Shown here one piece after another: positions 4,970-27,328 of a stretch of 30,066 nucleotides of DNA. Source of the DNA: Chloroflexota bacterium (GTDB lineage: Bacteria; Chloroflexota; Anaerolineae; Anaerolineales; Villigracilaceae). Position 1 is the stretch's first letter. Each line of letters starts with the position of its first letter. The position numbers and the translations under genes were made by a program. Location of the stretch: NCBI GenBank assembly GCA_026389975.1, contig JAPLGV010000409.1, positions 1-30,066 on the forward strand, in the 5' to 3' direction. The notes below the pieces were generated by a model. It was given only the letters and a program-made list of their open reading frames with translations, had not been told where the DNA came from and ran no database searches.

Positions 4970-5046
4970 TGGAAATTCGAATAACATTCCCAATGGGGAT
5001 TTTGGTTTTAAAAAGAAAGACCACCTTGCGGCGGTTTTCGTGCCCC
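4970..5046 (-). repeat. Degenerate copy of the tRNA-Glu-derived unit (att-like left boundary)
   Basis: 4970-5011 matches 27234-27275 at 34/42 positions ungapped. Similarity continues through accacct...ggtttt...gtgcccc, in the same orientation as the right copies. Confidence 0.8.
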
Positions 5047-5238
5047 TGTTGAGCACACCCGTATTGATATCCAGCACGGCTGCCCCAGCTTCGACCTGGG
5101 CAAGGGCATCTTGACGCACTATTTCGAAGTAGCCCTCCTGTAAGGCAGCATAAACCACTTTACAGCAAGTTGGATTAATGCGCTTTCCAATGATAACCGT
5201 GGGTCGATTACGTCGGATTGAAACTTATTTGTTCTCAT
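5047..5238 (-). pseudogene. 5' remnant of a pterin-binding (MeTr/AcsE/MetH-pterin-domain) methyltransferase
   Basis: One frame reads RPTVIIGKRINPTCCKVVYAALQEGYFEIVRQDALAQVEAGAAVLDINTG, matching the family pattern IIGERINPTG...A..QVEAGA..LD.N.G. There is an in-frame stop at 5225-5227, the ATG at 5238 is out of frame, and homology ends at the att-like repeat. Confidence 0.8.
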
Positions 5239-5382
5239 AGGTTAGCGTTGTTTCTTTTACTATCTTGCCTAATTTGTTGGGGATTTAAATGGTGATTTTA
5301 TAAAGAATACAAAAGGTTGGTAAGTTTTCTGGGCGTGCCTGACATGTTATGATACGCGGAACAAGAAATTATACCGAATCAG

Positions 5383-6012
5383 TTAATCGATCAGGGATTT
5401 TGCTAATGTCACAGCTTGGCCTGCATCTGGTGCAAAGCCATCCGCCCCGATCTTTTTGGCATATTCAGCTGTAACAGGAGCACCGCCTATAATTATCTTG
5501 ATGCGATCATGTAATCCAGCTTCTTCAATCGCCTTGATGGTGCTTTCCATACTAGGCATCGTAGTGGTCAACAAAGCGGAGAGTCCGAGGATATCTACTC
5601 CGTCGTGAATAGCTGCAACAAACTTTTCAGGAGCTACATCTACTCCCAAATCCACAACCTCGAAGCCAGCGCCTTCCAACATCATAGAGACCAGGTTTTT
5701 CCCGATGTCGTGCAGATCACCTTTTACTGTGCCTATTACCACTTTCCCTACAGGTTCAACTCCAGCTTCGACCAACAAGGGTTTCAGGATTTCCAGGCCA
5801 GCCTGCATAGCACGGGCTGCAATCAACATTTCTGGGACATAATAATCCCCTTCTTCAAAGAGACGTCCAACTTCTCCCATCGCGGCAATTAGGCCGGTTT
5901 GGAGAATGTCTGATGCAGCTACGCCAGCAGAAAGCGCAGCTCGGACCTTTTCTAAAGTCACTTCCGTGTCGCCATTTAGTACGGCTTGATAGATATCTTC
6001 CAGTTGGCTCAT
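5383..6012 (-). CDS. Corrinoid (B12-binding) methyl-carrier protein, MttC/MtbC/MtaC-like
   Basis: GTVKGDLHDIGKNLV (DxHxxG), SALLTTTM and IIIGGAP motifs, N-terminal cap domain, RBS GAGGTG. Confidence 0.95.
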   Translation of the reverse strand: MSQLEDIYQAVLNGDTEVTLEKVRAALSAGVAASDILQTGLIAAMGEVGRLFEEGDYYVPEMLIAARAMQAGLEILKPLLVEAGVEPVGKVVIGTVKGDLHDIGKNLVSMMLEGAGFEVVDLGVDVAPEKFVAAIHDGVDILGLSALLTTTMPSMESTIKAIEEAGLHDRIKIIIGGAPVTAEYAKKIGADGFAPDAGQAVTLAKSLID

Positions 6013-6021
6013 AGATCACCT

Positions 6022-7107
6022 CTATTCAGTACCTTCAATAATATTATTCCCTGCAAGGGGTTTTGCTTTCTCGGGCACGTGCAGTTGGCACAAAATATTC
6101 AACTCATCAAATACTGTCCATTCTTCAATAATTTTCCCAGAATGAACTTTTGCCTGCGTTATCCCCACAATTTTCACAGGCTTCCCGCTGGGCTCTCCGT
6201 AGATACCATAACCCGTATGGGTTCCTTGAAATGTCCATCTCAAGGAAGTACGATATCCTATTTCATCATCGCCTAAAGCACAGAAGTGGTCGAAATGCAT
6301 CTGACCATCTGGGAAACAAGCCAACCAATCAATGGCAAACTGGATAATATCATCATGCCCAAATAGCTCACGACCAGAGGCCGAATGACTGTGTATGGTT
6401 GAAAGGTATGCATCGATAAAACAATTGAACATCCGCCGATTCCAGGCGTTATGCCATGCGCGCTTGATAAAATCTTCGATATCAAAGCCATTCGACTCTT
6501 TCGGGGGCAGCTCGGGGGTCAACTTTTGTTCGACTGTATTTTCCTGTTCTGCAATGACATATTTTTCAGGTTGCATGGCTACGAGCCTGGCGACAAATTC
6601 ACGCTCATCGAGGCCGATTTGTCGAATAATGTTAAGATCGTCTCGCACCAGCCATTCTTCGATGATCTTGTTTTCTTTGACGACACAGTCTGCAATAACG
6701 CGATACTTCAGCATCTTCCCTGTTGGAGCACCATACAAACTAAAGCCCAAGTGGTGAGCGGTGCTCTGTATGCGATGTGAAGAATAAAAACCATCTTCAT
6801 CGTTCCCAGCCCAAATCACATCTTCGGGAAAGAGCCTGCGGTCTGGAAAGAAGGACAATTGCTGAACCGTATTTGCTAAAACTGATTTGGCACCAACAGT
6901 ATCTCCGCTGGATGTGTGAATTACAGCATCCTCTGAATAATGCGTATTGATCAACCCAATTTGCTTTTCTTCCCAGATCTTGTAGGTACACCGGATGATG
7001 TATGCGACAATATCCATATAATCTTCGTCAAAGCCGCGCATGCTCTGTGGACCGGGCGAAAGTCTTGCTAAAACATCATCATAGGGAGTTCTGGATATTG
7101 TTTTCAT
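6022..7107 (-). CDS. Two-domain SnoaL/NTF2-like 'ester cyclase' family protein
   Basis: Two repeats ending in ...KIIEEW..., with G.P(T/S)GK strands; ATGA overlap with the upstream gene. Confidence 0.75.
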   Translation of the reverse strand: MKTISRTPYDDVLARLSPGPQSMRGFDEDYMDIVAYIIRCTYKIWEEKQIGLINTHYSEDAVIHTSSGDTVGAKSVLANTVQQLSFFPDRRLFPEDVIWAGNDEDGFYSSHRIQSTAHHLGFSLYGAPTGKMLKYRVIADCVVKENKIIEEWLVRDDLNIIRQIGLDEREFVARLVAMQPEKYVIAEQENTVEQKLTPELPPKESNGFDIEDFIKRAWHNAWNRRMFNCFIDAYLSTIHSHSASGRELFGHDDIIQFAIDWLACFPDGQMHFDHFCALGDDEIGYRTSLRWTFQGTHTGYGIYGEPSGKPVKIVGITQAKVHSGKIIEEWTVFDELNILCQLHVPEKAKPLAGNNIIEGTE

Positions 7108-8153
7108 CGGCTCGACTTCCTCTGCTCAATTTGCTCAAACATACGATCAAAGAGATTGATGCCCAATTGCATGAAAATATCGATCAGGTCGATCGGCACC
7201 CAGTTCTGTACCAGGGTATCACATTCGCGCCTGTACCAGTCAAAGTCACGGATGGTCATCAATTTCCCAGTTGCGGGAACATCCAAATATTGTCCTCGAT
7301 TTACTGAGAACACTTTATCCCAAATGCCCAAGGAAGCATATTTGCCTTCCGCAAGAATTTCGCCATTTTCAATCCCGATACTGCGCGCCTTTCCAGGCGG
7401 GGTTGTCATGCCGCGGTCAGGAAAAGCCTTTAACCAGGGTCGTTGGTGGAAATCTTCGAATTCCTCCAGGCTGTGGCACGAGCCGATCCCCGTCGGACCG
7501 TACCAGTGCATCTTGGGATGCCAGTACTTATCCATCTCCATCGTTCGCAGGTTCTTGCCATCGAAGCGCATCATGCCCTGGAGCATGGCGTAAACCTGTT
7601 GCCTTGTTTTTAGTGTTTCAAGTGGATCCTGCGCGGTTAGAAGAACGCCATCTCCCGTGGTCGGGCTGAGCACCTTGCCTCCCTCCGCTCCCCGTGCAGG
7701 GGGGAGCACCTGGAAACCGGCCTGCCGCATCACGGAGAGCACATCCAGGATCAGGTAGTTTTCAACGATCATTCCATCTTCGACGCGATAATGCTGGCCG
7801 AAGTGGATATTCGTTTTCTCTCCAGTTGCGGGGATCCCCAACCAATCTTGAGCAAATGTACCAGTGAGATATCCGCATGCCGACACCCAGCATTCTCCAC
7901 AGCACTCGCTGCCCAGAAAAATGTCGCATTTTCGTTTTAGATCCGGGAAGGAGCGATACAATGGCTGCCAATATCCAGAGATGACTGCATCCACCCCTTT
8001 CAACTCATTGATGGGTTGGGGGCCAAACCAGGCGATATCTTTATGCATCTTGGTTTTGACAAGCTTCTCGATGTTGTCAAATCCAACATAATTCATTTTT
8101 TGCCAAAAATCCCAAACAATTTCTTTGTTCTTCTGGTTTAGATTATCAGTCAT
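7104..8153 (-). CDS. Two-domain SnoaL/NTF2-like 'ester cyclase' family protein
   Basis: GTFAQDWLGIPATGE, WYGPTGIG, FEDFHQRPWLKAFPD and VPATGK...NWVPID motifs; close paralog of 10504-11571. Confidence 0.8.
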   Translation of the reverse strand: MTDNLNQKNKEIVWDFWQKMNYVGFDNIEKLVKTKMHKDIAWFGPQPINELKGVDAVISGYWQPLYRSFPDLKRKCDIFLGSECCGECWVSACGYLTGTFAQDWLGIPATGEKTNIHFGQHYRVEDGMIVENYLILDVLSVMRQAGFQVLPPARGAEGGKVLSPTTGDGVLLTAQDPLETLKTRQQVYAMLQGMMRFDGKNLRTMEMDKYWHPKMHWYGPTGIGSCHSLEEFEDFHQRPWLKAFPDRGMTTPPGKARSIGIENGEILAEGKYASLGIWDKVFSVNRGQYLDVPATGKLMTIRDFDWYRRECDTLVQNWVPIDLIDIFMQLGINLFDRMFEQIEQRKSSR

Positions 8154-8185
8154 TATTGCCTCTGTTTCCTCTTGATCAAGATCTT

Positions 8186-9298
8186 TTAGCCTATTACCAG
8201 CCAGCTACTCACGCTGGTGGGAAGATGTTGGCGAAATTGATGACGCATACGGCCAAAAATATCCACCCCCATTTGCAGCAACAGATGCGGGATGTCGAAG
8301 GGCACCCAATTTTCAACGATCGTTTCATCATCGCAGCGGTAAAAATCCATCACCCGCATAGACACCCGCTTGCCAGTAGCCGGCATGCCAAGAAAACCAT
8401 TACCTGTATGGGTAGCTTGCAAATAGCCCCACCCGCCGGTCACTACATAGTGTCCATCGCCAATGCGGATGAAATGACCAATATCCGAACCTTTTCGATC
8501 CGGGAAAGCATTCAGGAATGGGATCTGGTGATGGTCTTCAAATCCCTTCAATCCCCGGGTGGTCCCAATTCCTGCCGCTCCATACCACATGAAATTTGGA
8601 TGCCAGTGCTTGACCATTTCCATTTCATCCAGGATTTCGCGTCTGGGCAGCTTGCCGCTGTAATTACCAAGCGCAGCGTGCATTCTGAGCACGCGTTCAA
8701 TGCAGCCCTTCGAAATTTCGCTGTCCTGAGGCGTAAGAACCACTCCACCATGTGTCATGGGATGTAGCCAGCGCATCTCCCGACCCAGACTGGGAGCGAT
8801 CGGCCAGTAACCAGCCTGGCGCATCAGGTCAAGAAAGTCGATGAACACATGACTGGTCGCAATTTTTCCATCCCGTAGCTCATGTCCTTCAGCATACCGC
8901 ACAGCCACTACCCCATGGGTCGCCGGAATGCCGAGCCAGTCGTTTTCGAATGTGCCAACATAGTGACCAAGGCAACCGATCCAATTCGTGTCCTGGTAAA
9001 GTCCTCCGGCTACAATATCATCACGCCGTTCAACATCTGGAATGGCGTTTCGAAGAGGTTTCCAAATCTGTTTCCCAACTGCTTCAAGGCCAGTCACTCT
9101 ATTTATAGGATGGGTCACGTTCACATTGGAATCGACGTGGTAACTGGCATGAATTGCATCACCTAATTCAACCAATGGTGCGTTGACCAATTGCTGCATG
9201 ATGCCTATGACGCGCTGCTTATTAGCGATGTTTTCTACCTGATCAATTGGCTGAAATTTAAAGGCCTTCACCCTATAACTATCATTTTCAATACTCAT
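8186..9298 (-). CDS. Two-domain SnoaL/NTF2-like 'ester cyclase' family protein
   Basis: GTFENDWLGIPAT, WYGAAGIG, FEDHHQIPFLNAFPD and MPATGKRV...ENWV motifs. ATG 9298 has GGAG 8 nt upstream. Confidence 0.8.
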   Translation of the reverse strand: MSIENDSYRVKAFKFQPIDQVENIANKQRVIGIMQQLVNAPLVELGDAIHASYHVDSNVNVTHPINRVTGLEAVGKQIWKPLRNAIPDVERRDDIVAGGLYQDTNWIGCLGHYVGTFENDWLGIPATHGVVAVRYAEGHELRDGKIATSHVFIDFLDLMRQAGYWPIAPSLGREMRWLHPMTHGGVVLTPQDSEISKGCIERVLRMHAALGNYSGKLPRREILDEMEMVKHWHPNFMWYGAAGIGTTRGLKGFEDHHQIPFLNAFPDRKGSDIGHFIRIGDGHYVVTGGWGYLQATHTGNGFLGMPATGKRVSMRVMDFYRCDDETIVENWVPFDIPHLLLQMGVDIFGRMRHQFRQHLPTSVSSWLVIG

Positions 9299-9369
9299 AA
9301 ACAAAGCTCCATCTCTTGTTTTAGCTGTCCTTCAAATTAGCTCGAAGGCGAGACTCAAAACGACCAAGG

Positions 9370-9879
9370 TTAATCATCATCCGGGTGTTCAAAAAATCCG
9401 GGCGGTTTCGAGCCGACAAACTTCAGCACTTTGTTGACATCGTAGCCAGCCTGTTCCAGAACACCCAAAATGTCAATCAAAACAAGGTTTTCTGCCAGTT
9501 TCCGTTCGCCACTTTCCGGGTCTGTTTCAATGTGCCAAAAATCCATGTAGCGCATTATGATCTTTTTGCCACTGGGCGGAATGCCCAACCATTCCTCAGC
9601 GAAAGTGGTCTCTTGGATTCCCGCCGCAGCCACCCAGTCTCCTTCCGAGATGCGGACAAGGTCTGTTGCGTGTTTGTCAGGGAAGGCGCGAATGAATGCC
9701 TGGCGGTAGTCATATTCAAATTCGTCCAGGCCATGCATGGTGCCAATCCCGGCCGGGCCTTCCCAAACCATGTCTTTTTTCCAATATGTTTCCATCAAAC
9801 CCAGGACGTTCTTGTTCATGGCGGCATACATATCGGCGACAAGCTGTTTGTTTTGTTCGGGAGTTTTCATAGTTTTCAT
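9370..9879 (-). CDS. Single-domain SnoaL/NTF2-like 'ester cyclase' family protein
   Basis: WEGPAGIG, AFIRAFPD and WLGIPPSGK...ENLVLID motifs. Start is ATG 9879 or 9870. Confidence 0.8.
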   Translation of the reverse strand: MKTMKTPEQNKQLVADMYAAMNKNVLGLMETYWKKDMVWEGPAGIGTMHGLDEFEYDYRQAFIRAFPDKHATDLVRISEGDWVAAAGIQETTFAEEWLGIPPSGKKIIMRYMDFWHIETDPESGERKLAENLVLIDILGVLEQAGYDVNKVLKFVGSKPPGFFEHPDDD

Positions 9880-9881
9880 CC

Positions 9882-10472
9882 TCAAAGTTCCTTAGTTTTA
9901 AAATGTTTTTGAAAGAATATTACATCGCGCTCTATGGCAACACGGTGTTCGTTATTCAGGCTTAACTCATGGTCATTGCCTTCGTAAAGATAAAGCGTGC
10001 TTTCTTTGCCCAGTTTTTTCAATTCCTCATGCAAGTTCACAGACCATTCGGCATGCACAGAAGGATCTTGCGTTCCCTGGTGGATGACAACCGGTGCAGC
10101 CGGGTTTTCCAGATAAAACAGTCCGTTCATAGCGTTTATATCTTCGAGCATGAAAGGCGCTGCTTTAGCAGCCGAGTTGATTTTTTCCCATTTCCTTTCG
10201 ATTGCAGTTTCAAGGGGTATTTCAGATTTATTTTCAGAAACTTCATACTTTGTATAGAAATTTGCCACATCTTCTATGCCGGCGGTGACACCTGCCCAAA
10301 TACTCGCTGCGTTGAAATTGTCATTCGCCGTTAATACTGTCAAGGCAATGTCTCCCCCCATCGAATGGACAGCTAAAAAGATGTTATTGTCATCTACTAA
10401 CCGTGGAGATTGAGGATAAAGCCCAAATTCTCCCCAATTGATTGATGAAATAGTTTGAATTATTTCTTCCAT
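9882..10472 (-). pseudogene. N-terminally truncated or chimeric alpha/beta hydrolase (S9 peptidase / dienelactone hydrolase-like C-terminal half)
   Basis: VHSMGG nucleophile elbow, HQGTQDPSV Asp and GNDHEL His. Only about 32 residues precede the Ser motif from ATG 10472. Confidence 0.6.
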
Positions 10473-10503
10473 ATTACCATTACCTCGATATCTGGGAATA
10501 AAT

Positions 10504-11571
10504 CTATCCGGAAGGATCGAACCAATACTTGCCGAGTTTGCGCTGCTCAACTTGACGTCGCAGCCTATCAAAGAGGTCAACTCCCATCTGCATGAAGAGA
10601 TCAATCATATCAATGGGCACCCAGTTCTCAATAAGATAATCACCCTCGCGCTTCCACCAGTCAAAGTCACGGATTGCCATCATCTTTCCGGTTGCCGGAA
10701 CCCCGATATACTCCCCGTGATGTTTTGAAAACACGGTATCCCATATTCCACCACTCACATAGTTTCCTTCGCCTATGGATCCCATGCGGCGTCCACTGCC
10801 AGTTTCACTAAGATTGCGGTCACCAAAGCCGTGCAACCATGGTCGCTGATGAAAGTCCTCAAACTCCTCAAGACTCAGACAGCGGCCGATCCCGCTCGGA
10901 CCATACCAATGCATCTGAGGATGCCAGTAATGCTCCTGTTCCATGCTGCGCATATTCTCCCCATCCCGACTACGGACGTATCGTCTCAACCCCTTACTCA
11001 TCGCCTCGACCAGTTCCAAACTTTTTCGCGATTCCAGTTCGTCCTGCTCGGTCAGAAGCACCCCATCTCCCGCTCTAGGTCCAGGAACCTTCCCGCCTTC
11101 CCCACCACGAGCGGGTGGCAGCACCTGAAATCCGGCCTGTCTCATGACCGCCAAGAGATCCAGAATTACATAGCTTTCAGCGATCTTTCCCTCTCGCATA
11201 ACGTAGAACTGGCCAAAATGGATATTTGTCTTCTCGCCGGTGGCCGGAATGCCTAACCAGTCCTGAGCGAACGTGCCGGTGAGATACCCGACGCCCGATA
11301 CCCACTCTTCTCTACCGCTCAGCCCACCCATGAAGATGTCAGGCTTTCTCTTTAGATCGGGGAATGACTTTAATAGCGGCTGCCAAAAATCCGTGATGAG
11401 CGCATCCACACCCTGCAGGTGATTGATCGGGTGAGGACCGTTCCAATTAACGTCCTCGTGTACGGCAGCTCGGATCACGTTTGCGACTTTATCAGATTCA
11501 ACGTAGTTCATTTTTTGCCAGAAGTCCCAAACAACCATTTTGTTTTTCTGATTCTTCTTATTATCAGACAT
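10504..11571 (-). CDS. Two-domain SnoaL/NTF2-like 'ester cyclase' family protein
   Basis: VWDFWQKMNYV, GTFAQDWLGIPATGEKTNIHFGQ, WYGPSGIG and FEDFHQRPWL motifs; paralog of 7104-8153. Confidence 0.8.
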   Translation of the reverse strand: MSDNKKNQKNKMVVWDFWQKMNYVESDKVANVIRAAVHEDVNWNGPHPINHLQGVDALITDFWQPLLKSFPDLKRKPDIFMGGLSGREEWVSGVGYLTGTFAQDWLGIPATGEKTNIHFGQFYVMREGKIAESYVILDLLAVMRQAGFQVLPPARGGEGGKVPGPRAGDGVLLTEQDELESRKSLELVEAMSKGLRRYVRSRDGENMRSMEQEHYWHPQMHWYGPSGIGRCLSLEEFEDFHQRPWLHGFGDRNLSETGSGRRMGSIGEGNYVSGGIWDTVFSKHHGEYIGVPATGKMMAIRDFDWWKREGDYLIENWVPIDMIDLFMQMGVDLFDRLRRQVEQRKLGKYWFDPSG

Positions 11572-11611
11572 TGTATTCTCTTTTTTCTAAATAACGGCTT
11601 GCTTAATACAA

Positions 11612-12616
11612 CTAACCCTTCACAGCTCCGGATGTCAGGCCCTTTATTAATTGTTTCTGGAAAAAGAGAATCATGATCACGATTGGGATTGTCGCGGACA
11701 CAGCAGCTGCTGCTGCCAAGGTCAGTTGCCCTGGGTCCTCTCCACCCGTAAATTGCGAGATTGCAACTGTAAGGGTCCAGTTTGATCGGGTAAGGATTTT
11801 GGCCAACAGGAAATCGCTATAGGCTAAGAGCAGGGAAAACAGCCCTGTAGATACGATGCCTGGCCACATAATCGGAATAATAACCTTAAAGAATGCCGAA
11901 ACACGGTTGCAACCATCCACCATCGCAGCATCCTCGATCTCCCGTGGGATATTCATGAAGAAGCTGCGAAGCATCCATATCGTAAATGGCTGGTTTACTG
12001 CCACAAGTGTGATGATCAACAACGCAAGGGTGTCATACAATCCAGTTACTTGTCCAAGCCAGTAGTAAGGCAGCACTAATGCCAAGGAGGGAAGGGCTCG
12101 AAACCCGAGCGCCGCAACCAGGATTAAAACACCAGCGATACCTGAGTAACGGGCCAAGGCATATCCTGCTAGACAACCGATACTGAGCGAGATTGCAACT
12201 GTCCCAAGGGTTACGATAACAGAGTTTAAAAAGTATTTATAAAACTCCGCAGTGTTCACAAACTTTGGGATCATCCACATTATCAGGAAGCTAACGACGA
12301 GTATGCCCCCATAGATAATATAATTCTGCCCTGGGATGCGATTAGCATTAAACCCGATCACCACTAGACCGATGATGATCCCAGCGAGGATTATGCCTAC
12401 CAACCAAGGATTTTTGGGGACAGAATTCAGCCAGAGTTCCCTATAGTTATCAAAGGTCGCATCGAAGATGAATAACGGTGTGGGGGAGTACGCCTGCCGT
12501 GGCGTTTTCAAGGACTGAAGGGTTGTCCATACAACCGGAGCCACGCTGAAAAGAGCATACGTGATCACGACCAAATAGATCAAAGTCAGAGCAATGGGGT
12601 TTTTTATTTTCTGCAT
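11612..12616 (-). CDS. Carbohydrate ABC transporter permease (MalG-like)
   Basis: EAA motif IPREIEDAAMVDGCN and TM helices. ATG 12616 has GAGGAG upstream. Confidence 0.92.
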   Translation of the reverse strand: MQKIKNPIALTLIYLVVITYALFSVAPVVWTTLQSLKTPRQAYSPTPLFIFDATFDNYRELWLNSVPKNPWLVGIILAGIIIGLVVIGFNANRIPGQNYIIYGGILVVSFLIMWMIPKFVNTAEFYKYFLNSVIVTLGTVAISLSIGCLAGYALARYSGIAGVLILVAALGFRALPSLALVLPYYWLGQVTGLYDTLALLIITLVAVNQPFTIWMLRSFFMNIPREIEDAAMVDGCNRVSAFFKVIIPIMWPGIVSTGLFSLLLAYSDFLLAKILTRSNWTLTVAISQFTGGEDPGQLTLAAAAAVSATIPIVIMILFFQKQLIKGLTSGAVKG

Positions 12617-12617
12617 A

Positions 12618-13481
12618 TTATCGCTCCTCAATTTGTTCGTGGTAAGTATAGACCAACAAGGGGATCAAGACTATCATGATCATAATGACCGTTAAAATTG
12701 CCATGGCATTGGCTAATCCTAGTTGTTGCACGGCCATCGCAATCCGAAAGATGTATGACATGACGGAAGCCGCTTTATAGATTGGATTCTGTTGCGTTAG
12801 AACGAAGATGCTATCAAAGACTCGATACGCGTCCATAATTAAAATGAGGCCGACAAACACGAGAAGAGAACTCAGATGCGGAATAACAATATATCTGACC
12901 TGTTGCCGCCGGTTTGCGCCATCCATTAAAGCTGCTTCTATCTGTTCTTGCGGCAAGGTTTGCAGACCCGCATACATAACGATGAAAGGAAAAGGGGTGG
13001 TTGTCCATATCGCGTTGAGAAAAATGAGTATCTTCACCGAAACTTCATTGAAGAAAAAGGGTTGTTTCAGAATTTCTTGGTAAAGCCAAGCTGCAATACC
13101 ACTCGGTACAAAGAGTAGTCTAAACATCATGGTTCCTACCACTGGAACGATTACCATAGGCAGCAAGTAAAGAGTGATGAAAACTCCACGAACATGTCCT
13201 GAAATTTGATCCAGGAACAGCGCTAAAAGAAACCCTATCACGATTGTTGCAGGCACTGTTATGGCGATAAACAGTACTGTAAACCGAAAGGCCTGCCAGA
13301 ATCTCTGATCGGTCAGCACTTCGATATAGTTGGCCAGCCCAACAAATACAGGATTATTGATATTGCGGTAGGTCATGAAATTAAGGCCAAGCCAAGTCGC
13401 CATAACCAGTGGGAACACCAGAAGCGTGCCCATTGCAATGAGACTCGGAGCTACAAACTTGTAGAAATCCTTTGCTTTCAA
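12618..13481 (-). CDS. Carbohydrate ABC transporter permease (MalF-like)
   Basis: FVGLANY and LPQEQIEAALMDGAN EAA motifs. TTG start at 13481 has AGGAG 6 nt upstream. Confidence 0.92.
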   Translation of the reverse strand: MKAKDFYKFVAPSLIAMGTLLVFPLVMATWLGLNFMTYRNINNPVFVGLANYIEVLTDQRFWQAFRFTVLFIAITVPATIVIGFLLALFLDQISGHVRGVFITLYLLPMVIVPVVGTMMFRLLFVPSGIAAWLYQEILKQPFFFNEVSVKILIFLNAIWTTTPFPFIVMYAGLQTLPQEQIEAALMDGANRRQQVRYIVIPHLSSLLVFVGLILIMDAYRVFDSIFVLTQQNPIYKAASVMSYIFRIAMAVQQLGLANAMAILTVIMIMIVLIPLLVYTYHEQIEER

Positions 13482-13516
13482 TTCGCACTCCTTATAAGTT
13501 TGTGAAATATTAACAA

Positions 13517-13549
13517 AATGGCCTGCCTGATTAATCAAGACAGACCATT
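13517..13549 (-). terminator. Stem-loop between the SBP and permease genes (stabiliser or attenuator)
   Basis: Minus strand reads AATGGTCTGTCTTGATT / AATCAGGCAGGCCATT then TT. The mismatches seen on + are G:U pairs on the transcribed strand. Confidence 0.6.
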
Positions 13550-13570
13550 CTATCCGGTTATTCCTGAGGC

Positions 13571-15430: not shown

Positions 15431-15457
15431 GCGGCCTTTGATTTGGAAGATTAGTAT

Positions 15458-18691: not shown

Positions 18692-18712
18692 GAAAAATAA
18701 AGGAGTCCTGAA

Positions 18713-19105: not shown

Positions 19106-19237
19106 AACAGACAACGTGTATCGGGCAGATTTTTACCGGCCCAAATAAACAAAGTCACCTCGACCAGTAAAGCCAACGTCATCCCGTACGCCATGTTTGC
19201 TGTTCCCGGTGGAGAGCGATCTGCCAAGGTCTATGAT

Positions 19238-20149
19238 ATGAATGTTCAAGTTTTTGATCCGCGATTTTACCAACTCATCGACAAAGACTGCGAGTTGGAG
19301 CTGGTTGTTACTGGCTTCGAATTCACTGAGGGGCCAATCTGGCATCCTGGAGAAAAATCGCTCATCTTTAACGATATTATCGGGAACGCCATTTACCATT
19401 GGACTGAGAAGAGCGGGCTAAAAAAGATTCGGCGCAACAGCTATATGGCCAATGGAAACACATATGACCGGCAAGGAAGAGTGGTCACCTGTGAGCATGC
19501 CACCAGTCGCATTACACGCACTGATTTTACGGGCGGTGGAGCACTTGAGATCCTCGCAACCCATTATCAGGGTAAAGAGCTGAACAGCCCCAATGACATC
19601 ATCTGTAAACGCGATGGCATACTTTACTTTTCCGATCCGAACATGGGTCGAGGGCCCAGTCATGGGGTGCCGCGCCAACAGGAATTGAATTTCCAGGGTG
19701 TCTACCGCCTGGATCCTTCTGGCCAGAGTCTGAGGTTGTTGGTGGAAGATTTCTCGAAGCCTAATGGGCTATGCTTTTCTATCGATGAAAAACGTCTCTT
19801 CATTGACGACAGCGAGTATAACCATATCCGTGTTTTTGATGTGAAAAGTGATGGATCTTTGCATAATGGTCGGCTATGGGCAGAACTTGCTCGAGTTGGA
19901 AAAGGCGTGGCGGATGGCATGAAAATCGATCGGGCCGGAAATATCTATTGTTGCGGTCCTGGCGGAATTCATCTATTGGATGCAAATGCCAATTATTTGG
20001 GAATTATCCTCATGCCAGAACAAACCGCAAACCTTGCCTGGGGGGATGATGACCTTAGTAGCTTGTACATTACAGCCTCCACTTCGGTGTATCGCCTCCG
20101 GACCGGTGCATCGTCTTCGAACCTTGGAGTCTGGGTTCCCCGCAATTAA
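19238..20149 (+). CDS. SMP-30/gluconolactonase/LRE family lactonase
   Basis: FEFTEGPIW, LNSPND, PNGLCFS and ADGMKID motifs. Start is 19238 or 19193. Confidence 0.92.
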   Translation: MNVQVFDPRFYQLIDKDCELELVVTGFEFTEGPIWHPGEKSLIFNDIIGNAIYHWTEKSGLKKIRRNSYMANGNTYDRQGRVVTCEHATSRITRTDFTGGGALEILATHYQGKELNSPNDIICKRDGILYFSDPNMGRGPSHGVPRQQELNFQGVYRLDPSGQSLRLLVEDFSKPNGLCFSIDEKRLFIDDSEYNHIRVFDVKSDGSLHNGRLWAELARVGKGVADGMKIDRAGNIYCCGPGGIHLLDANANYLGIILMPEQTANLAWGDDDLSSLYITASTSVYRLRTGASSSNLGVWVPRN

Positions 20150-20174
20150 TATCGTTTGATCAGAAGGAGATTCA

Positions 20175-21239
20175 GTGGACAAAAAAGATATCCTGGTAAA
20201 CCATGCCGATCTGCAGAATTTTTCTGCCGCGCTATTTGAAAAAGCAGGCTTATCCCCTGAAAATGCGGATTTCTTTGCCCAATCGTTGGTGGACATTAAC
20301 TTATGGGGTATCGATTCGCACGGTGTGCTTCGCCTGCCAATCTATGTCAAACGGCTTAAATCTGGTGCCTGTAACCCCAAGCCTAATTTAAGGACTGTCA
20401 AGAGCGCTATCACACTGGAAGTCATGGATGGCGATAATGGCCCGGGTCAAATAGTAGGCCGCGCTGCAATGGAGCGAGCCATCGAACTGGCGAAAACGTA
20501 TAACTTCGGGATTGTAGGAGCCTTCCACAGCAATCATTTTGGGGCGGCCGCCACCTACTCTCGTATGGCCGCTGCTCAAGGCATGCTAGGCGTGTCAATG
20601 ACCAATGTCGTCCAGAACGTGGTTGCTCCTGGAGGAAGCAAGCCGATCATTGGCAATAATCCATTTTCAGTCGCAGTACCTACTTACGGGAAATTCCCAT
20701 TTGTGTTGGACATCTCCCTTTCAGCAGTTTCAGGCGGAAAACTTCTACTCGCCAGTAAAAAAGGCGAAAAAATCCCTCTGGATTGGGGCACAGATAAATT
20801 CGGAAAACCAACGGATGACCCTGATGTAGCTTTCAATGGTTTCTTGTTACCAGTGGGAGCCTATAAAGGCTTGGGGTTGGCCTATGTAATTGAGATCCTG
20901 ACTGGGGTTCTCACCAGTGGAGTCTTCCTGGATGGCATGAAAGGAATGTACAAATACCCTGATGATCCAAGTTTGACCTCTCACATGATGATGGCTGTGA
21001 ACATTTCTGCCATTATGGATCCAGGCGAATTGGAAAAACGGATGACTGAATTCACGCAAAAGATTCATTCATCGCCAATGTGGGATGAGAAGCAGGAAAT
21101 GCTGATCCCTGGGGAACTTGAGCACCGTACCATGCAAGCCCGGAAAGCAAACGGCATCCCTCTGCAGATGAATTTGTATGAGGAATTAACGAGCCTGGCG
21201 ACCGAACTGGGTGTCCCGGCCACTTTATCAAAGATGTAA
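20175..21239 (+). CDS. Ldh_2 (malate/L-lactate/2-oxo-acid, AllD/YiaK-like) oxidoreductase
   Basis: GIDSHGVLRL, SNHFGAA, GNNPFSVAVP and KGLGLA motifs; GTG start after AGAAGGAG. Confidence 0.92.
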   Translation: MDKKDILVNHADLQNFSAALFEKAGLSPENADFFAQSLVDINLWGIDSHGVLRLPIYVKRLKSGACNPKPNLRTVKSAITLEVMDGDNGPGQIVGRAAMERAIELAKTYNFGIVGAFHSNHFGAAATYSRMAAAQGMLGVSMTNVVQNVVAPGGSKPIIGNNPFSVAVPTYGKFPFVLDISLSAVSGGKLLLASKKGEKIPLDWGTDKFGKPTDDPDVAFNGFLLPVGAYKGLGLAYVIEILTGVLTSGVFLDGMKGMYKYPDDPSLTSHMMMAVNISAIMDPGELEKRMTEFTQKIHSSPMWDEKQEMLIPGELEHRTMQARKANGIPLQMNLYEELTSLATELGVPATLSKM

Positions 21240-21267
21240 CTAAAAAAACAAAAAAAGGAGATATAAA

Positions 21268-22080
21268 ATGGAAAAAAAGAAATACCTGTGGTGGCATGAG
21301 CTACCAGCGCCTGAATTAACCCGCTTTGCCAGGGAAGTCAGCGATATCGCCATCCTGCCTATTGGGGCTATAGAACAACACGGACCCCATTCACCTTGCG
21401 GTGTAGATGCTTTCAACGCCAGGGGAATGGCTGAGTTAATTGCCCAGAAAACCGATGTGATGCTGCTGCCCTGGATGTGGTATGGGTCGCATCCCTATCA
21501 TCATTGGTACATGCCAGGAACAATTCCGTTGAGTTACGATACCCACATCGCTCTGCTGGTCGATATCATCCAAGGTGCCTCAGTATCGGGTTTTAACAAA
21601 TTCATCATCCTGTCAGCCCATGGACAGGTTTCCACCACCCTGGTTGCGGTTCATAAACTGGGGCTGGCCGGGCATTTCACCTTATCCCTGCACTGGTACG
21701 ATTTCCTGCGGGATAACAAGGACGTGCTGGATGATTACATGTGGCACGCCGACGAAGCCGAGACTTCTGTTGGACTGTATCTGTATCCCCAATACATTGA
21801 TATGAGCAAGGCTGAAAAAGGCGGCGGGGAAGCGCTGATCGATAAGCGCTTTATCATTGCGCCTGGACAAATGCCCAAACCCGGGATGATGTACCACTTT
21901 GAAGGGACCTTTGCTCGCCCGGAGTACAAAGAACTACCAAATGGCGTCATCGGTGACCCTACCAAAGCCACACTCGAAAAGGGCGAGGTCATTGTCACCC
22001 GTGTTGTGAACCACATCGTCGAGCTCATCGAAGATATCAAGACCCGCTGGCCAGTCGGCACCAAGCCGCCAGTTAAATAG
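21268..22080 (+). CDS. Creatininase-family metallohydrolase, IolN-like
   Basis: PIGAIEQHGPH...D, AHGQ and HADEAETS metal ligands; WYGSHPYHH..PGT segment; RBS AAGGAG. Confidence 0.88.
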   Translation: MEKKKYLWWHELPAPELTRFAREVSDIAILPIGAIEQHGPHSPCGVDAFNARGMAELIAQKTDVMLLPWMWYGSHPYHHWYMPGTIPLSYDTHIALLVDIIQGASVSGFNKFIILSAHGQVSTTLVAVHKLGLAGHFTLSLHWYDFLRDNKDVLDDYMWHADEAETSVGLYLYPQYIDMSKAEKGGGEALIDKRFIIAPGQMPKPGMMYHFEGTFARPEYKELPNGVIGDPTKATLEKGEVIVTRVVNHIVELIEDIKTRWPVGTKPPVK

Positions 22081-22091
22081 AGCAGCAAATC

Positions 22092-22123
22092 GTAGAGATG
22101 GATGAGAAATCGTCCTTCTCTAC
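22092..22123 (+). other. Intergenic stem-loop with GAAA tetraloop
   Basis: gtagagatggatga-gaaa-tcgtccttctctac; there is no U-tract, so it is more likely a stabiliser than a terminator. Confidence 0.5.
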
Positions 22124-22154
22124 TCCATTCTATAAACCATAGAGAGGATGAATT

Positions 22155-22931
22155 ATGAAGCTAAAAGACAAGGTATCTATTATAACCGGTGCAACCATGG
22201 GAATCGGCCTGGCTTGCGCCCAGGAATTTGCCGTCGAAGGTTCCAAAGTTGTTCTGGCTGGCCGCAGTCAGGAATTGGGAGAAAAAGCCGCTGTAGATAT
22301 TCGAGCAAGTGGTGGTGATGCGATTTTCATCCCCTGTGATGTTAGTAAGAAAGATGAAATTCAAAATTTGGTTCAAAAAACCGTGGAACACTATGGCCGG
22401 ATCGATGTGGTGGTCAATAACGCTGGGACGAATCACAGTGCCAACTTCTTCGATACCACCGAAGAGGATTGGGACCGGGTCATGAGTGTGGATTTAAAAG
22501 CCACATTCTTGCTCAGCCAGGCCGCGGCCAGAGTGATGGTGGATAAGAAGATTCCCGGCGTGGTCATCAACATGACCTCGGTCATGGCCGTTTTGGCTTT
22601 GGGGGACCAGGTGCCATATTGCGCAGCCAAAGGCGGGGCCAACCAACTCACAAAATCAATGGCAATAGCTCTCGCCGGTTATGGGATTCGTGTCAATGCC
22701 ATCGGTCCCGGCCCGGTACTGACTGATCTCATGAAGCGAGTGGTAAGTAGCAAAGAAAAAGAAACTGTACTCCTCGATCGAATGCCACTTGGGAGAATTG
22801 CCGAATGCCGTGAAATTGCAACCGTAGCCGTGTTTTTGGCCAGCGACGATTCCAGCTTCATCACCGGTCAATGTATTTACCCAGATGGCGGTCGGATGAT
22901 CCAGGCATTTCCAAGAAAGCAGGAAAAGTGA
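22155..22931 (+). CDS. SDR-family NAD(P)-dependent oxidoreductase
   Basis: TGATMGIG, NNAG, YCAAK and VNAIGPG motifs. Confidence 0.95.
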   Translation: MKLKDKVSIITGATMGIGLACAQEFAVEGSKVVLAGRSQELGEKAAVDIRASGGDAIFIPCDVSKKDEIQNLVQKTVEHYGRIDVVVNNAGTNHSANFFDTTEEDWDRVMSVDLKATFLLSQAAARVMVDKKIPGVVINMTSVMAVLALGDQVPYCAAKGGANQLTKSMAIALAGYGIRVNAIGPGPVLTDLMKRVVSSKEKETVLLDRMPLGRIAECREIATVAVFLASDDSSFITGQCIYPDGGRMIQAFPRKQEK

Positions 22932-22935
22932 TCTA

Positions 22936-23373
22936 ATGCCACGCGTGACACTGACCGAACAGCAAAATTATGAGTTTAGCCATTCCCTGACGGTTCGGCC
23001 GACTGATATTAATTACGCTGGCCATTTGGGAAATGAAGCTTTGTTGGGGTTGGTGCACGAAGCGCGTGCGTATTTCTTAAAGGAATTGAATTTCAACACG
23101 ATTGTCGGGAACGAACAGCGCATTGGGCTGCTCATTGCAGATTTGGCTGTCAACTTCAAAGCTGAAGCATTTGCCCATGATCAGCTCACGGTGGATTGTC
23201 AAATTGATGAATTACAGGAAAAATCATTTCGCCTTTTTCATCGAATTCGCTGCGGTGAGCAGGTGATTACTTTGGTCGAGACTGGTGTGGTTGCCTATGA
23301 TTACCAATCTGGCCATGTGGTTCCGCTGCCTGATGATTTTTTAAATGGGCTACAGAATTTTCGTAGAAGATGA
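22936..23373 (+). CDS. Hotdog-fold thioesterase (4HBT/FcbC-like)
   Basis: VRPTDINYAGHLGN...HEAR motif. Confidence 0.85.
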   Translation: MPRVTLTEQQNYEFSHSLTVRPTDINYAGHLGNEALLGLVHEARAYFLKELNFNTIVGNEQRIGLLIADLAVNFKAEAFAHDQLTVDCQIDELQEKSFRLFHRIRCGEQVITLVETGVVAYDYQSGHVVPLPDDFLNGLQNFRRR

Positions 23374-23394
23374 TTTTTATTATCGGAGAAATAG

Positions 23395-24816
23395 ATGAAT
23401 AATCCCAAAGTTGCATTGATGACTTTTGGTGACGCTCGTGACCATGAGTGGAACAACTTGTTCCGCGGTCTGACCGAACCAAGACATAAACAGATCATCG
23501 AATATTTCAATAAGTTGCCGATCGAGCTCCACGCATTAGAAGAAGTTGCCCGCACGAAAGATCAAATTGATGCACAGGTAGATGCGCTAAAAACTGCCGG
23601 GATTGCCGCGTTTATTGTCCATCTTCCTTGTTGGACCGCGCCAAATTTGGTTTTGTGCGGTGTTCAACGGATGGGATTGCCAACCATCTTGGTGTCCAAC
23701 CGGCATCCTGGAACCCATGGTACGGTCGGATTGCTGGGGGCCGGGGGGGCACTGGATCAGATTGGCTACCCCCATCTTCGCGTGCGAGAAGGTTTTGACA
23801 CCCCTGCCTTGGGCGAGAAAGTTTTACCATTTACCCGGGCAGCTTCAGCGGTGGCTCAGTTACGCGGTCAAGTATTTGGCATGTTTGGTGGACGCTCCCT
23901 GGGAATCGATACCGGTACCATTGACACAATGCAATGGCGGAGGCAGTTTGGTGTGGATGTCGAACATATCGACCAGTTGGAAATCATCCGCCGGGCGGAA
24001 CTCATCGAAGATGAACCCACTGGAAAAATGGTCGCCTGGCTGGAAGAAAAAATGGGGTCCGTGGATTACGATGGCTCGAAACTGACACCTGAGAAGCTCG
24101 GGTTCCAATCCCGCTGTTACCTGGCTACTCGGCAGATCATTGAAGAGTTAGGGCTGGATTTCGTGGCGATCAAGTGTATGCCCGACCTAGCCAATCACTA
24201 TGTTCCCCAATGTATCTCGGCAGCACTGCTGCCTGGACCTTATGATTCGCAGGGTCATAAAAAGCCAGTCCCGATGGCTTGTGAGACTGATGGGGATGGG
24301 GCACTTACGATGCAAATATTAGGTTTGGTTTCGGGGGGTCAGCCAACTTTGTTTGGCGATTTGAGCTATCTAGATGATGAAAACCTGACCATTTACATTC
24401 CCAACTGTGGTGCCATGTGCAGTTGGTTCGCGGGTCGATCCTCCAATCTGGAAGAAAACCTGTCAAAGATCCAACTGCGGCCTTCCTTCCGGCCCGGCGG
24501 AGGCGCGACGGCCTACTTCAAGGCTGCTCCTGGCCCGGTAACTCTGGCGCGCCTTTCCCGTCGAGAGGGGAAATATGTAATGACCATCTTCACCGGTGAT
24601 GCCATTGAACCATCTCCCGAGGCCTATGAAGAATTTGTGAAAGCGCGTGGCAGCCATCAACTCCCGACAATGTTTGTTCGCGCGAACCTGAACTTCGACG
24701 AACTTATCGCTGAATTTGGATCCAACCATATTTCTGGCACCGCAGGTCTGTACGTCGAAGAATTAGTGCATGTCTGCCATTTACTCGATATTCAGCCCAT
24801 TGTCCTCGCGAACTGA
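23395..24816 (+). CDS. L-fucose/L-arabinose isomerase family protein
   Basis: GGRSLGIDTG, AIKCMPDL, ACETDGDGALTM, NCGA, GPVTLARL and NHI motifs. Confidence 0.88.
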   Translation: MNNPKVALMTFGDARDHEWNNLFRGLTEPRHKQIIEYFNKLPIELHALEEVARTKDQIDAQVDALKTAGIAAFIVHLPCWTAPNLVLCGVQRMGLPTILVSNRHPGTHGTVGLLGAGGALDQIGYPHLRVREGFDTPALGEKVLPFTRAASAVAQLRGQVFGMFGGRSLGIDTGTIDTMQWRRQFGVDVEHIDQLEIIRRAELIEDEPTGKMVAWLEEKMGSVDYDGSKLTPEKLGFQSRCYLATRQIIEELGLDFVAIKCMPDLANHYVPQCISAALLPGPYDSQGHKKPVPMACETDGDGALTMQILGLVSGGQPTLFGDLSYLDDENLTIYIPNCGAMCSWFAGRSSNLEENLSKIQLRPSFRPGGGATAYFKAAPGPVTLARLSRREGKYVMTIFTGDAIEPSPEAYEEFVKARGSHQLPTMFVRANLNFDELIAEFGSNHISGTAGLYVEELVHVCHLLDIQPIVLAN

Positions 24817-24828
24817 GAGGTATCTTTA

Positions 24829-25971
24829 ATGGATCGTAGAACAGCATTTACTGCCACTCTCAACCACCAAGAGCCGGATATGGTTTTAGTGGATTACGGG
24901 AAGCATATAGGTTCTTTTCATGTTAAGGCCTATGAACGGCTCCTTAAACACCTGGGAATTCAGTCTGCGATAACTATTCTCGACCGGATGGCGCAAAATG
25001 TGGTTTTGGATGAGTCAGTGTGTCGGATGCTGGGAATCGATTTCCGGTGGATCGTACCCAATTGGGTGGGGGTCCGGGATATCGAGATCGATGGAGAGCC
25101 TGGGTATATCGATATGTGGCAGACTCCCCATAAATGGACAGAGGTCGGTCAATATTACGCTATCCACACATCCCCCTTCAATCAAAAAACACTCAGCCGC
25201 GAGGATATCGAGAATTTTGATTGGCCTGATCCCAACAATCCAAACATGTTTTCAGGTTTAAAAGAAAAAGCTCAGGATTGGTACGAAAATACCGATTATA
25301 TTGTTGGCGCGGATGGGATCAAAGTCGGAATTTTACAAACCGCATCGCAGCTGCGTGGCTATGACAAATTATTCATGGACTTTGCGCTCAATCCGGAGAT
25401 CACCCATATTTTCTTGGACAGAATTTCATCTGTTATCAATGAAATGTACCGCCATTATCTAGAAGTCGTTGGCCCCTATGTCCAGGTTGTGGTCATTACA
25501 GATGATCAGGGTACTCAAAACTCATTGATGATATCGCCTGCAATGTTCCGGGAATTTATCAAGCCGCGTCTGAAATCCTTGATCGACACCATCAAGGCAA
25601 CCGCTGACGTTAAAGTGTTGATGCACTGCGATGGCGCCATCCTGAAGATTATTCCCGACTTGATCGAGATTGGTGTCGATATTCTTAACCCCATCCAGAC
25701 GGTTGTTCAAGGGCTTGAAGATACTAAAGCGCTCAAAGAACAGTTCGGGGATCAGATTTGCTTCCATGGAGGCATTGACGTGCAACAGGTGCTGCCCAAT
25801 GCAAGCCCGGAAGAAGTACGTCAGGAAGTCGAAAGACGAAAATGTGATCTTGGGCGTAGGGGAGGCTACATTCTTGCTCCGTGCCATAATATCAATGTAG
25901 ATATCCCGGTTGAAAATGTGATCGCCTTATTCGATGCTGTGCATGATTTGGGTTGTTACCCGTTGGGTTGA
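24829..25971 (+). CDS. Uroporphyrinogen decarboxylase superfamily protein (MtaA/CmuA-like methyltransferase candidate)
   Basis: DDQGTQNSLMISP, MHCDG, LNPIQT, FHGGIDVQ and GGYILAPCHNI motifs, including likely Zn ligands H-x-C and the C-terminal C. Confidence 0.9.
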   Translation: MDRRTAFTATLNHQEPDMVLVDYGKHIGSFHVKAYERLLKHLGIQSAITILDRMAQNVVLDESVCRMLGIDFRWIVPNWVGVRDIEIDGEPGYIDMWQTPHKWTEVGQYYAIHTSPFNQKTLSREDIENFDWPDPNNPNMFSGLKEKAQDWYENTDYIVGADGIKVGILQTASQLRGYDKLFMDFALNPEITHIFLDRISSVINEMYRHYLEVVGPYVQVVVITDDQGTQNSLMISPAMFREFIKPRLKSLIDTIKATADVKVLMHCDGAILKIIPDLIEIGVDILNPIQTVVQGLEDTKALKEQFGDQICFHGGIDVQQVLPNASPEEVRQEVERRKCDLGRRGGYILAPCHNINVDIPVENVIALFDAVHDLGCYPLG

Positions 25972-26015
25972 TAATAAATCTATTTTGGTTTTGTAACTAT
26001 ACTAAGGAGAAAATA

Positions 26016-26792
26016 ATGTTTGAAAACATACTAAAAACTAAACTAAAAGCAGGCAAGAAAACAATTGGAGCATGGGCACAACTTGCCAGTCCGTTTACGG
26101 CTGAGATTCTTAGCTCGGCAGGATTTGATTGGTTGATGCTAGATATGGAACATGCGCCAGGTGATATTCTTACGCTGATAAGTCAGGTGCAGGCTATGAA
26201 AGGCTCCAATTCAGTACCCCTGGTGCGCGCTCCCTGGAATGATTTTGTTGCCATCAAACGGATTCTGGATGCTGGCGCCCAGGGTGTATTAATCCCTTAT
26301 GTAAATTCTCGGACAGAGACTGAGCAGGCGGTAAAGGCCTGTAAATATCCCCTGGAGGGCATCCGCGGGGTGGCCGGGAGCCCACGCGCGGCTGGTTATG
26401 GGCGGAACATCGGTAATTACCTTCAGAGAGCCAATGATGAGATCTTCATCATGATAGCGATAGAAACCCCGGAAGCGGCCTCGAACCTGGATGAGATCCT
26501 TCAAGTGCAAGGATTGAACGGCGTTTTCATCGGTCCGATGGATCTGGCTTCCTCGATGGGATTTTCTGGTGATTCCAGCAGACCGGAAGTCCAGTCTGTC
26601 ATTCAGGATATTGAAAAGAAAGTGCTTTCATCTGGAAAAGTGTTGGCAACTACCACGGGTACCTGGGAGCAAGCCCAAACCTTGTTCGAGCGTGGATATC
26701 AAATGCTTATGCTGATGGCTGATGGGGTCTCGCTGGCAGCCTTGGCAACCCAAAAAGTTAACCAATTCCGTGAACAATATCCGAGTGGATAA
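26016..26792 (+). CDS. HpcH/HpaI class II pyruvate aldolase family
   Basis: FDWLMLDMEH, LVRAPWND, RGVAG, IETP and FIGPMDL motifs. ATG 26016 has AAGGAG upstream. Confidence 0.93.
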   Translation: MFENILKTKLKAGKKTIGAWAQLASPFTAEILSSAGFDWLMLDMEHAPGDILTLISQVQAMKGSNSVPLVRAPWNDFVAIKRILDAGAQGVLIPYVNSRTETEQAVKACKYPLEGIRGVAGSPRAAGYGRNIGNYLQRANDEIFIMIAIETPEAASNLDEILQVQGLNGVFIGPMDLASSMGFSGDSSRPEVQSVIQDIEKKVLSSGKVLATTTGTWEQAQTLFERGYQMLMLMADGVSLAALATQKVNQFREQYPSG

Positions 26793-26960
26793 TCTATTGT
26801 GTTCCCAGATGCATTGGAGGTTCTTGAAGTATTCGGATACTATTTATACCCAAATATTCTATTATCTGAGGGATAATTACCCTTGCAGCCCTTTTATAGC
26901 AGACCCAAAACGAGCCGGCTTCTTGGGTCGGTGCCGCTGACGATTGTGGTGGATAACAAG

Positions 26961-26987
26961 AACGCGCCCTTTCAGCGCGTTTATTTT
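26961..26987 (+). terminator. Possible intrinsic terminator of the rightward operon
   Basis: aacgcgc-cctttca-gcgcgtt followed by tatttt. Confidence 0.45.
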
Positions 26988-27150
26988 AGCTCAAAAGGAG
27001 CCCGAAGGCCTGCAGGACGGCCTGAGTAGCCTGAATATGAGCCCAAGAGGTACCCTGAAAGACAAAACCGGCGTATAGCAGCTTGCGGCCGTAATCATCC
27101 AACGAGGTAATCAGGCTCCACTTCTCTTCGGCAAAAGGCGAACATCGATG
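26986..27150 (-). pseudogene. Internal fragment of a DDE (rve/IS481-like) transposase
   Basis: HRCSPFAEEKWSLITSLDDYGRKLLYAGF...TSWAHIQA..AVLQAFGL resembles the first-Asp region pattern W.LI..LDDYSR.LLYA (recalled from memory). Confidence 0.6.
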
Positions 27151-27152
27151 CG

Positions 27153-27328
27153 TGCGAATATCACTCCCCAGTGGGTGTTTCAGTTTTAACAAAAAAACCA
27201 CCTGCCTGGGTGGTTTTTTTCACTGTGCCCCCGTGGAGATGCGAATAGCATCCCCAATGGGGACTCCAGTTTTAACAAAAAAACCACCTGCCTGGGTGGT
27301 TTTTTTTTTACTGTGCCCCCGTGGAGAT
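27153..27328 (-). repeat. Tandem ~87-bp tRNA-Glu-derived units, each with a bidirectional terminator
   Basis: tgcgaata occurs at 27153 and 27240. cagttttaacaaaaaaaccacctgcctgggtggttttttt..ctgtgcccccgtggagat occurs at 27181-27240 and 27267-27328. Confidence 0.9.
27274..27309 (-). terminator. tRNA-Glu terminator (second copy at ~27188-27220)
   Basis: A-tract, ACCACC stem, 6-nt loop, GGTGGT, T-tract. Confidence 0.85.

Follow-up and report, generated by a model that had tools for sequence, protein, structure and literature searches.

The 30,066-nucleotide (nt) contig JAPLGV010000409.1 of a Chloroflexota bacterium (Anaerolineales, Villigracilaceae; assembly GCA_026389975.1), analysed here over its full length and referred to as the window, carries a 22-kb block of low GC content between a tRNA-Glu gene and a host gene convergent on it, hyp161. 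This block is probably a foreign island that was gained at an insertion hot spot, is bounded by members of an array of tRNA-Glu-derived units and is now immobile. The host assembly is a metagenome-assembled genome (MAG) of 520 contigs, 3.09 Mb and 56% GC, and the window is the whole of C176, its longest contig. In what follows, G000 designates the host genome, the other G numbers its congeners (52 species representatives were searched) and the L numbers other contigs or loci used for comparison. The coordinates of the features are collected in Table 1.

The block is delimited by its composition. The GC content is 0.59 at 1-4843, 0.479 at 4844-27257 and 0.596 at 27258-30066, while at third codon positions the GC content (GC3) ranges over 0.40-0.59 for all genes of the block and over 0.63-0.75 for all those of the flanks. 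Both values change sharply at the two edges, which bears out the composition changes that the initial annotation, made from the sequence of the window, had reported near both ends. Furthermore, the assembly has no longer stretch below 50% GC than this block, and no other contig carries a comparable run. The limits first given to the island (4970-27328) have been refined: relative to G014, the sister at this locus, the extra block runs from 4844 to about 27257 (22,414 bp), and the cargo proper occupies 5054-27152 (22,099 bp). The 3' end of tRNA-Glu lies ~55 nt from the block and ~160 nt from the cargo proper.

The comparison of synteny among congeners reveals the empty site that had been predicted, i.e. 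hyp161 convergent on tRNA-Glu and adjacent to it, in seven congeners (G014, G048, G062, G063, G047, G066 and G004); the hyp161 protein displays 66-89% amino acid (aa) identity in six congeners. In G014, whose flanks are ~94-95% identical at the nt level, hyp161 ends ~60 nt from the 3' end of tRNA-Glu and the same right-flank genes are found beyond, 100-nt windows of the two genomes being 90-100% identical up to both junctions. As expected of a tRNA island, the site is uninterrupted in close relatives and the tRNA gene is intact; the proposal of an insertion on the 3' side of this gene therefore stands. The same comparison indicates that the insertion took place after this lineage had separated from the sister species. 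The initial annotation regarded the integration as old, a view that is contradicted by the absence of the block from the sister and by a GC content that has not been ameliorated. Since the block is absent from a sister with ~95% identical flanks, the decay of the left unit does not date the insertion.

The cargo has its closest relatives in other lineages. Two metagenome contigs of 45-48% GC, L145 and L146 (the latter being Ga0315282_10004700), match 5262-16967 at 87-94% nt identity, and a Chloroflexota MAG contig of 45% GC (L030) keeps the gene order of the right arm of the cargo, with 64-81% aa identity. The same gene order, more loosely kept, is found in other Anaerolineae MAGs, where the GC content of the cluster follows that of the host from 45% to 65%. 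No tRNA or unit was found near the cargo genes in L029-L032, L040, L041, L145 and L146; therefore, this is an ordinary chromosomal cluster in these lineages and a foreign one here. A 20-kb DNA query taken from the block retrieved nothing in the 52 congeners except a weak similarity to corrinoid protein genes. The block thus displays the general marks of a genomic island, namely a composition unlike that of the host and a cargo whose closest kin occur in other lineages. It is very unlikely that the block is instead ancestral and was deleted in the relatives, its low GC content being due to the genes themselves. The short junction of G014, G048 and G059 could indeed be derived from a G000-like array by a deletion at 2-3 nt of microhomology, but this scenario requires separate losses in seven species whose empty-site sequences differ. 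It also conflicts with the adoption of the host GC content by the same cluster elsewhere, with a block GC3 lying 15-30 points under that of the flanks and with the close nt identity of the cargo to low-GC metagenome contigs.

The initial annotation took the repeats that flank the block for the duplication left by its integration. The resemblance itself is confirmed: the repeat finder pairs 4970-5018 with 27234-27282 (80% over 49 nt), an ungapped recount of 4970-5011 against 27234-27275 gives the same 34 identical positions out of 42, and a gapped local alignment lengthens the left match to 4970-5038, hairpin and terminator included. The left copy is the top match to unit B within 1-26900, with a score of 37 against a mean of 15.5 (standard deviation 1.6, maximum 22) for 200 shuffles, and the best match to either unit, A or B, in the remainder of the window. 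However, the copies do not result from this integration: no duplicated core is found, and they belong to a pre-existing tandem array that occurs in at least 10 congeners. Each unit, of ~86 nt, comprises a copy of the 3' half of tRNA-Glu, interrupted at the T-loop by a hairpin of 18-20 nt, and then a terminator. Unit B is intact, and the left unit has a decayed copy of the tRNA 3' end and a terminator of the G054/G017 type, unlike the type found at the right end and at the host's own tRNA. A search of the whole genome with the 92-nt unit gave matches confined to this contig (27221-27312, 27153-27220, 4970-5026 with an E-value of 1.4e-7, and the tRNA end), as did blastn; therefore, the unit is not a dispersed genome-wide repeat, a possibility that the initial annotation had itself raised against its reading and that is ruled out by these searches.

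The unit is present in at least 10 of the 52 congeners searched, with 1-3 copies in each, almost always beside tRNA-Glu and whether or not an island is found there. Arrays of 2-4 units occur in G013, G056 and G065; on congener contigs, unit arrays were located on L018 (9360-9650), L118, L121 and L016 (5372-5470). The CCCC/GGGG stem of the insert is constant across species, the loop and the terminator being variable, and some units of G065 are devoid of terminator. One decayed unit is kept even at the empty sites of G063, G066 and G062, and half a unit in G014, G048 and G059. As the units are widespread in the genus, some empty sites included, they are an old feature of the locus and not a product of this insertion. 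Likewise, the copies that flank the cargo are array members also found in species without this island, and not attachment (att) core repeats made by integration. We infer that the units are scars or pseudo-attachment sites of tRNA-Glu-specific tyrosine integrases. A more ambitious and rather improbable reading is that of a maintained landing pad, in which the array of pseudo-tRNA 3' halves offers secondary attachment sites that take up foreign DNA and so spare the tRNA. On this reading, cargo devoid of recombinase would insert into a unit at its T-loop position, which the neat interruption of one unit in this window would suggest.

The interval between tRNA-Glu and the convergent hyp161 is an insertion hot spot. 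In G013, an N-terminally truncated tyrosine recombinase gene (PF00589) lies ~250 nt from tRNA-Glu and is followed by a 13.4-kb island carrying glycerol-type genes. That island terminates with a copy (~30 nt) of the 3' end of the tRNA, beyond which three units are found. In G017, an HTH_17 (excisionase-type) gene abuts the tRNA and is followed by a ParM-like gene and a full tyrosine recombinase gene, the nearest unit lying 2 kb from hyp161 and ~106 kb away from the tRNA. In G019 (C14), the peptidase gene located upstream of hyp161 (~6.4-7.5 kb) and the tRNA-Glu unit (~58.6 kb) are ~51 kb apart. The tyrosine-integrase elements that G013 and G017 carry at the same site thus make it a hot spot for tRNA-Glu-specific integrative elements.

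A ~20-nt sequence containing ACACCCGTAT abuts the 3' end of tRNA-Glu in G013 (L109, 3999-4030) and the unit starts of G065, where it is found at two sites 2.2 kb apart beside units (L118, L142); it may be an arm of a family of integrative elements. The 10-nt ACACCCGTAT motif at the left cargo junction (5054-5066) was considered as such an arm and rejected: it lies within conserved methyltransferase codons and on the wrong side of the unit, and the match is therefore probably due to chance.

The junctions of the cargo show where it lies in the array. Put end to end, positions 5040-5053 (14 nt) and 27153-27222 (70 nt) make up a complete unit with a single base missing; since the two pieces fit together, the cargo splits one unit at the equivalent of the T-stem/T-loop boundary, the break lying within 1-2 nt of this boundary. 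Gene scraps are found at both ends of the cargo. The left one shares 56% identity over 52 aa with a Pterin_bind protein encoded on C298 of the host genome, and the 431-aa open reading frame (ORF) of C231 to which the right one is related displays a weak, sub-threshold match to rve_3 (E 4.7e-4). Both had been candidates for integrase relics and were discarded, the right scrap proving transposase-like and the left one a methyltransferase. The claim that no recombinase is present was upheld: in a cargo that is 95% coding, with a largest gap of 196 nt, the scan of all ORFs detected no integrase, resolvase or transposase domain. The contig has no match to PF00589, the five tyrosine recombinases of the genome (PF00589) being all encoded on other contigs, and the integrase fragment of G013 used as a query has no match in 4840-5400 or 26700-27320. 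The integrase that a tRNA island is expected to carry is therefore missing.

In the preferred reading, i.e. the gain of a foreign island at the hot spot, the cargo would have entered at a unit-type attachment site from a low-GC donor. Its mobility genes, whatever they were, would then have been lost, leaving gene scraps at both ends, so that the island would no longer be able to move on its own. The integrase step, taken alone, is an even bet at best. The event that placed the cargo in the unit could be the action of an integrase on a pseudo-site, followed by loss of the element ends, or an illegitimate join; integrase action is put first because of the position of the break and of the behaviour of the locus in congeners, the anatomy of the junctions being no proof of it.

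An illegitimate or insertion sequence (IS)-mediated insertion would have joined a random 22-kb piece of donor DNA, its cuts falling within a methyltransferase gene and a transposase gene, into a break of the array, the att-like units being bystanders. This is quite unlikely, although both ends of the cargo are internal gene fragments without duplicated core and the right end bears the transposase-like scrap. Moreover, on L146 (11871-13057), the closest low-GC metagenome version of the cargo, a frameshifted ORF set on the opposite strand, taken by eye and with no family search as an IS4-like transposase, comes right after the corrinoid protein gene, where the window has the methyltransferase scrap. 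However, IS ends, a second IS copy and a target-site duplication are lacking, and the break falls within 1-2 nt of the T-stem/T-loop boundary of a tRNA-like unit, in a locus that demonstrably attracts integrase elements in congeners. Nor does the block have the structure of a composite transposon, which would show an IS copy at each end, terminal repeats and a duplicated target: the repeat search found no matching ends, and there is one internal transposase scrap.

Several observations weigh against the preferred gain of an island at this hot spot. There is no duplicated core at the cargo junctions, where truncated coding sequence abuts both unit halves, and the fit of these halves would occur by chance in roughly 3-5% of cases for two random breaks with an 86-nt period. 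G014 and the outgroups G048 and G059 have a shorter junction in common and lack the hairpin that follows hyp161, the spacer and the left unit, so that the whole allele, array plus cargo, is new to the lineage. Finally, the assembly is a fragmented MAG, and the structure of the contig is known from the assembly alone. The hyp161 hairpin is found in the same place in G008 and G017, and the spacer (4844-4969) has no homologue at the locus in congeners except for this hairpin. Integration into a G014-like site also predicts a displaced far-end copy nearly identical to the tRNA-proximal segment of G014. This copy is not seen, which, together with the missing hairpin, spacer and left unit, argues against simple integration into such a site. 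Two crossovers were examined and rejected: one in the unit hairpin fails to yield the left junction observed, and one in the tRNA, displacing a G014-like 3' end, would have left the near-identical displaced copy that is absent.

The cargo may have arrived already embedded in the array, through homologous exchange of the whole locus with a congener. In its full form, this alternative holds that the complete island allele entered from another member of the genus through homologous recombination, the crossovers lying in or beside hyp161 and in the unit, the terminator or the tRNA, and that no site-specific recombination took place in this lineage. It would account for the distribution of hairpin, spacer and left unit, all three of which are found in G000 and in the more distant G008 and G017 and lacking in the short junction of G014, G048 and G059, and for a left-unit terminator of the G054/G017 type rather than that of the host's own tRNA. 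The segment from unit through tRNA (27259-27458), which is 95-99% identical to G014, would provide homology for a crossover. Nevertheless, such an import is somewhat unlikely: the cargo occurs in none of the 52 species representatives, so that no donor was found, and the 3' end of hyp161 shows no sharp drop of identity with G014 (90-95%). Furthermore, import addresses delivery, and the primary insertion in the donor still needs explaining. As for the mode of arrival of the block, either the island-bearing allele was imported whole from a congener or the short allele spread among the relatives.

A last alternative, that the contig is an assembly chimera of two organisms, is extremely unlikely. 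The MAG is indeed fragmented, and exact repeats of 40 nt, together with a conserved tRNA, are found at the right end, but the sequence is unique at the junctions 4843/4844, 5053/5054 and 27152/27153, where no repeat in common could have misled an assembler, and both flanks are collinear with a single contig of the sister.

The cargo consists of two divergent arms. From the families to which its products are assigned, it would be a gene set under LacI control that imports and degrades a sugar-like compound and includes a corrinoid methyl-transfer module. Between the arms, in the divergent promoter region (15451-15643) by the LacI gene, palindromic GTATACGTATAC-type sites are found, which are probably LacI operators. 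The cassette encoding the ATP-binding cassette (ABC) transporter lies between two direct copies (260 nt, 87%) of a SnoaL gene 3' end (10491-10750 and 15118-15377). The alpha/beta hydrolase gene (9882-10604) is whole in the window and in two pieces in L145, the closest metagenome contig.

Table 1. Features of the window, from left to right (cargo products are named from Pfam; in NCBIfam the SDR alone passes the cut-off, with a subfamily model, and all other cargo names are at family level).
Feature	Position	Strand	Remarks
Host gene hyp161	4354..4839	+	161 aa, without Pfam family; nearest Atlas clusters mostly Chloroflexota; left anchor
GC hairpin and T-run	4845..4866	+	Just 3' of the hyp161 stop codon; below the T-run rule of the terminator scan
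Left unit, decayed copy of tRNA-Glu 3' half	4957..5039		T-loop-like piece, hairpin insert (4986-5000), variable-loop-like piece, terminator (5020-5035, minus strand)
Start of a further unit, 14 nt	5040..5053		Equals acceptor plus 3' strand of T-stem, 12/14 against tRNA end; cut by cargo
Pterin-binding (MeTr-like) methyltransferase scrap	5054..5224	minus	First ~57 codons remain; homology ends at unit
Left arm	5383..15511	minus	Corrinoid protein, five SnoaL/NTF2-like genes and a fragment, alpha/beta hydrolase, two ABC permeases, solute-binding protein
Right arm, first genes	15677..26792	+	LacI regulator, aldehyde:ferredoxin oxidoreductase, cupin, SMP-30-type lactonase, Ldh_2 dehydrogenase
Right arm, later genes	15677..26792	+	Creatininase/IolN-like hydrolase, SDR, thioesterase, fucose-isomerase-like protein, MtaA/URO-D-like methyltransferase, HpcH-type aldolase
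Two-way terminator-like hairpin	26960..26982		Closes right arm
Transposase-like scrap	26989..27153	minus	Internal, ~58 aa; 74% identity to the middle of the 431-aa ORF on C231 of the host genome
Unit A	27153..27220		Same layout as unit B without the first ~15 nt; starts at T-loop-like piece; own terminator
Unit B, complete	27221..27310		21-nt copy of tRNA 3' end (95%), 18-nt hairpin insert, copy of T-stem/variable loop, terminator serving the tRNA
tRNA-Glu(UUC), intact	27313-27386	minus	Rfam, 53.7 bits; the one tRNA gene of the window
Promoter-like site	27439-27411		

The flanks have features of their own. The Rfam search of the window retrieved tRNA-Glu and nothing else. The first gene to the right of the tRNA lies in 27459-27758, a segment that is 75-84% identical to G014 at the nt level (61% at the aa level) in surroundings ~95% identical to it; its 88-aa ORF (27461-27727, minus strand), for which no Pfam family was found, shares 81-84% aa identity with the more distant G004 and G010. 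This segment is the second one of the locus whose ancestry is discordant. A short GC-rich repeat, whose core is GGAACCGGGACTA, is found in 305 exact copies spread over 121 contigs of the host genome; four lie in the flanks of the window (1387-1453, 1791-1822 and 29652-29711), and the 22-kb block has none, against an expectation of about two. In addition, the 3' end of the ribosomal protein S1 gene (2951-3252) contains 12 copies of an 18-nt period, which encode a repetitive tail rich in Lys, Glu and Pro.

The block provides a clean case of recent gene gain in uncultured Chloroflexota, with defined junctions, known empty sites and a near-identical environmental cargo. It also illustrates that a tRNA-like repeat at the edge of an island need not be the footprint of the integration of that island, which is relevant to the island-finding programs that use such repeats to date or delimit islands.

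Genomic islands linked to tRNA genes, including the classic pathogenicity and metabolic islands, are made by elements encoding tyrosine integrases, and the sublocations of crossovers within tRNA genes have reportedly been studied by K. P. Williams. Like these islands, the block adjoins the 3' end of a tRNA gene, has a foreign composition, is absent from close relatives, carries a catabolic cargo and is flanked on both sides by copies of the tRNA 3' end. Unlike them, it has neither integrase nor duplicated core, the copies come from an older array and each includes an 18-nt hairpin insert, and the cargo lies 1.7 units away from the tRNA instead of against it.

The cis-mobilisable elements (CIMEs) of the streptococcal ICESt family are integrase-less islands bounded by att sites, which can be mobilised by a related integrative and conjugative element. 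The cargo described here resembles them in being devoid of recombination genes, in its att-like flanking repeats and in the presence, at the same tRNA, of integrase-bearing elements of the genus. It differs from them in the decay of the left copy and in the lack of an intact pair of att cores around the cargo, so that mobilisation in trans appears doubtful.

In Prochlorococcus, islands located by tRNA genes are aggregates of transferred material that are immobile as a unit, in which new arrivals push older ones outward and leave fragmented integrases and extra partial tRNAs as remnants (Hackl et al., bioRxiv 10.1101/2020.12.28.424599). The picture across this genus is the same as that of these islands and of tycheposons, in a different phylum; no tycheposon gene set was seen here, no search having been aimed at one. 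Unlike those of Prochlorococcus, the partial tRNAs form here a regular tandem array with a conserved hairpin and a terminator. Globally, the block belongs to a known kind of object, being a catabolic island of recent arrival, now immobilised, at a tRNA hot spot; the array of tRNA-Glu units is the more unusual object and merits a separate study.

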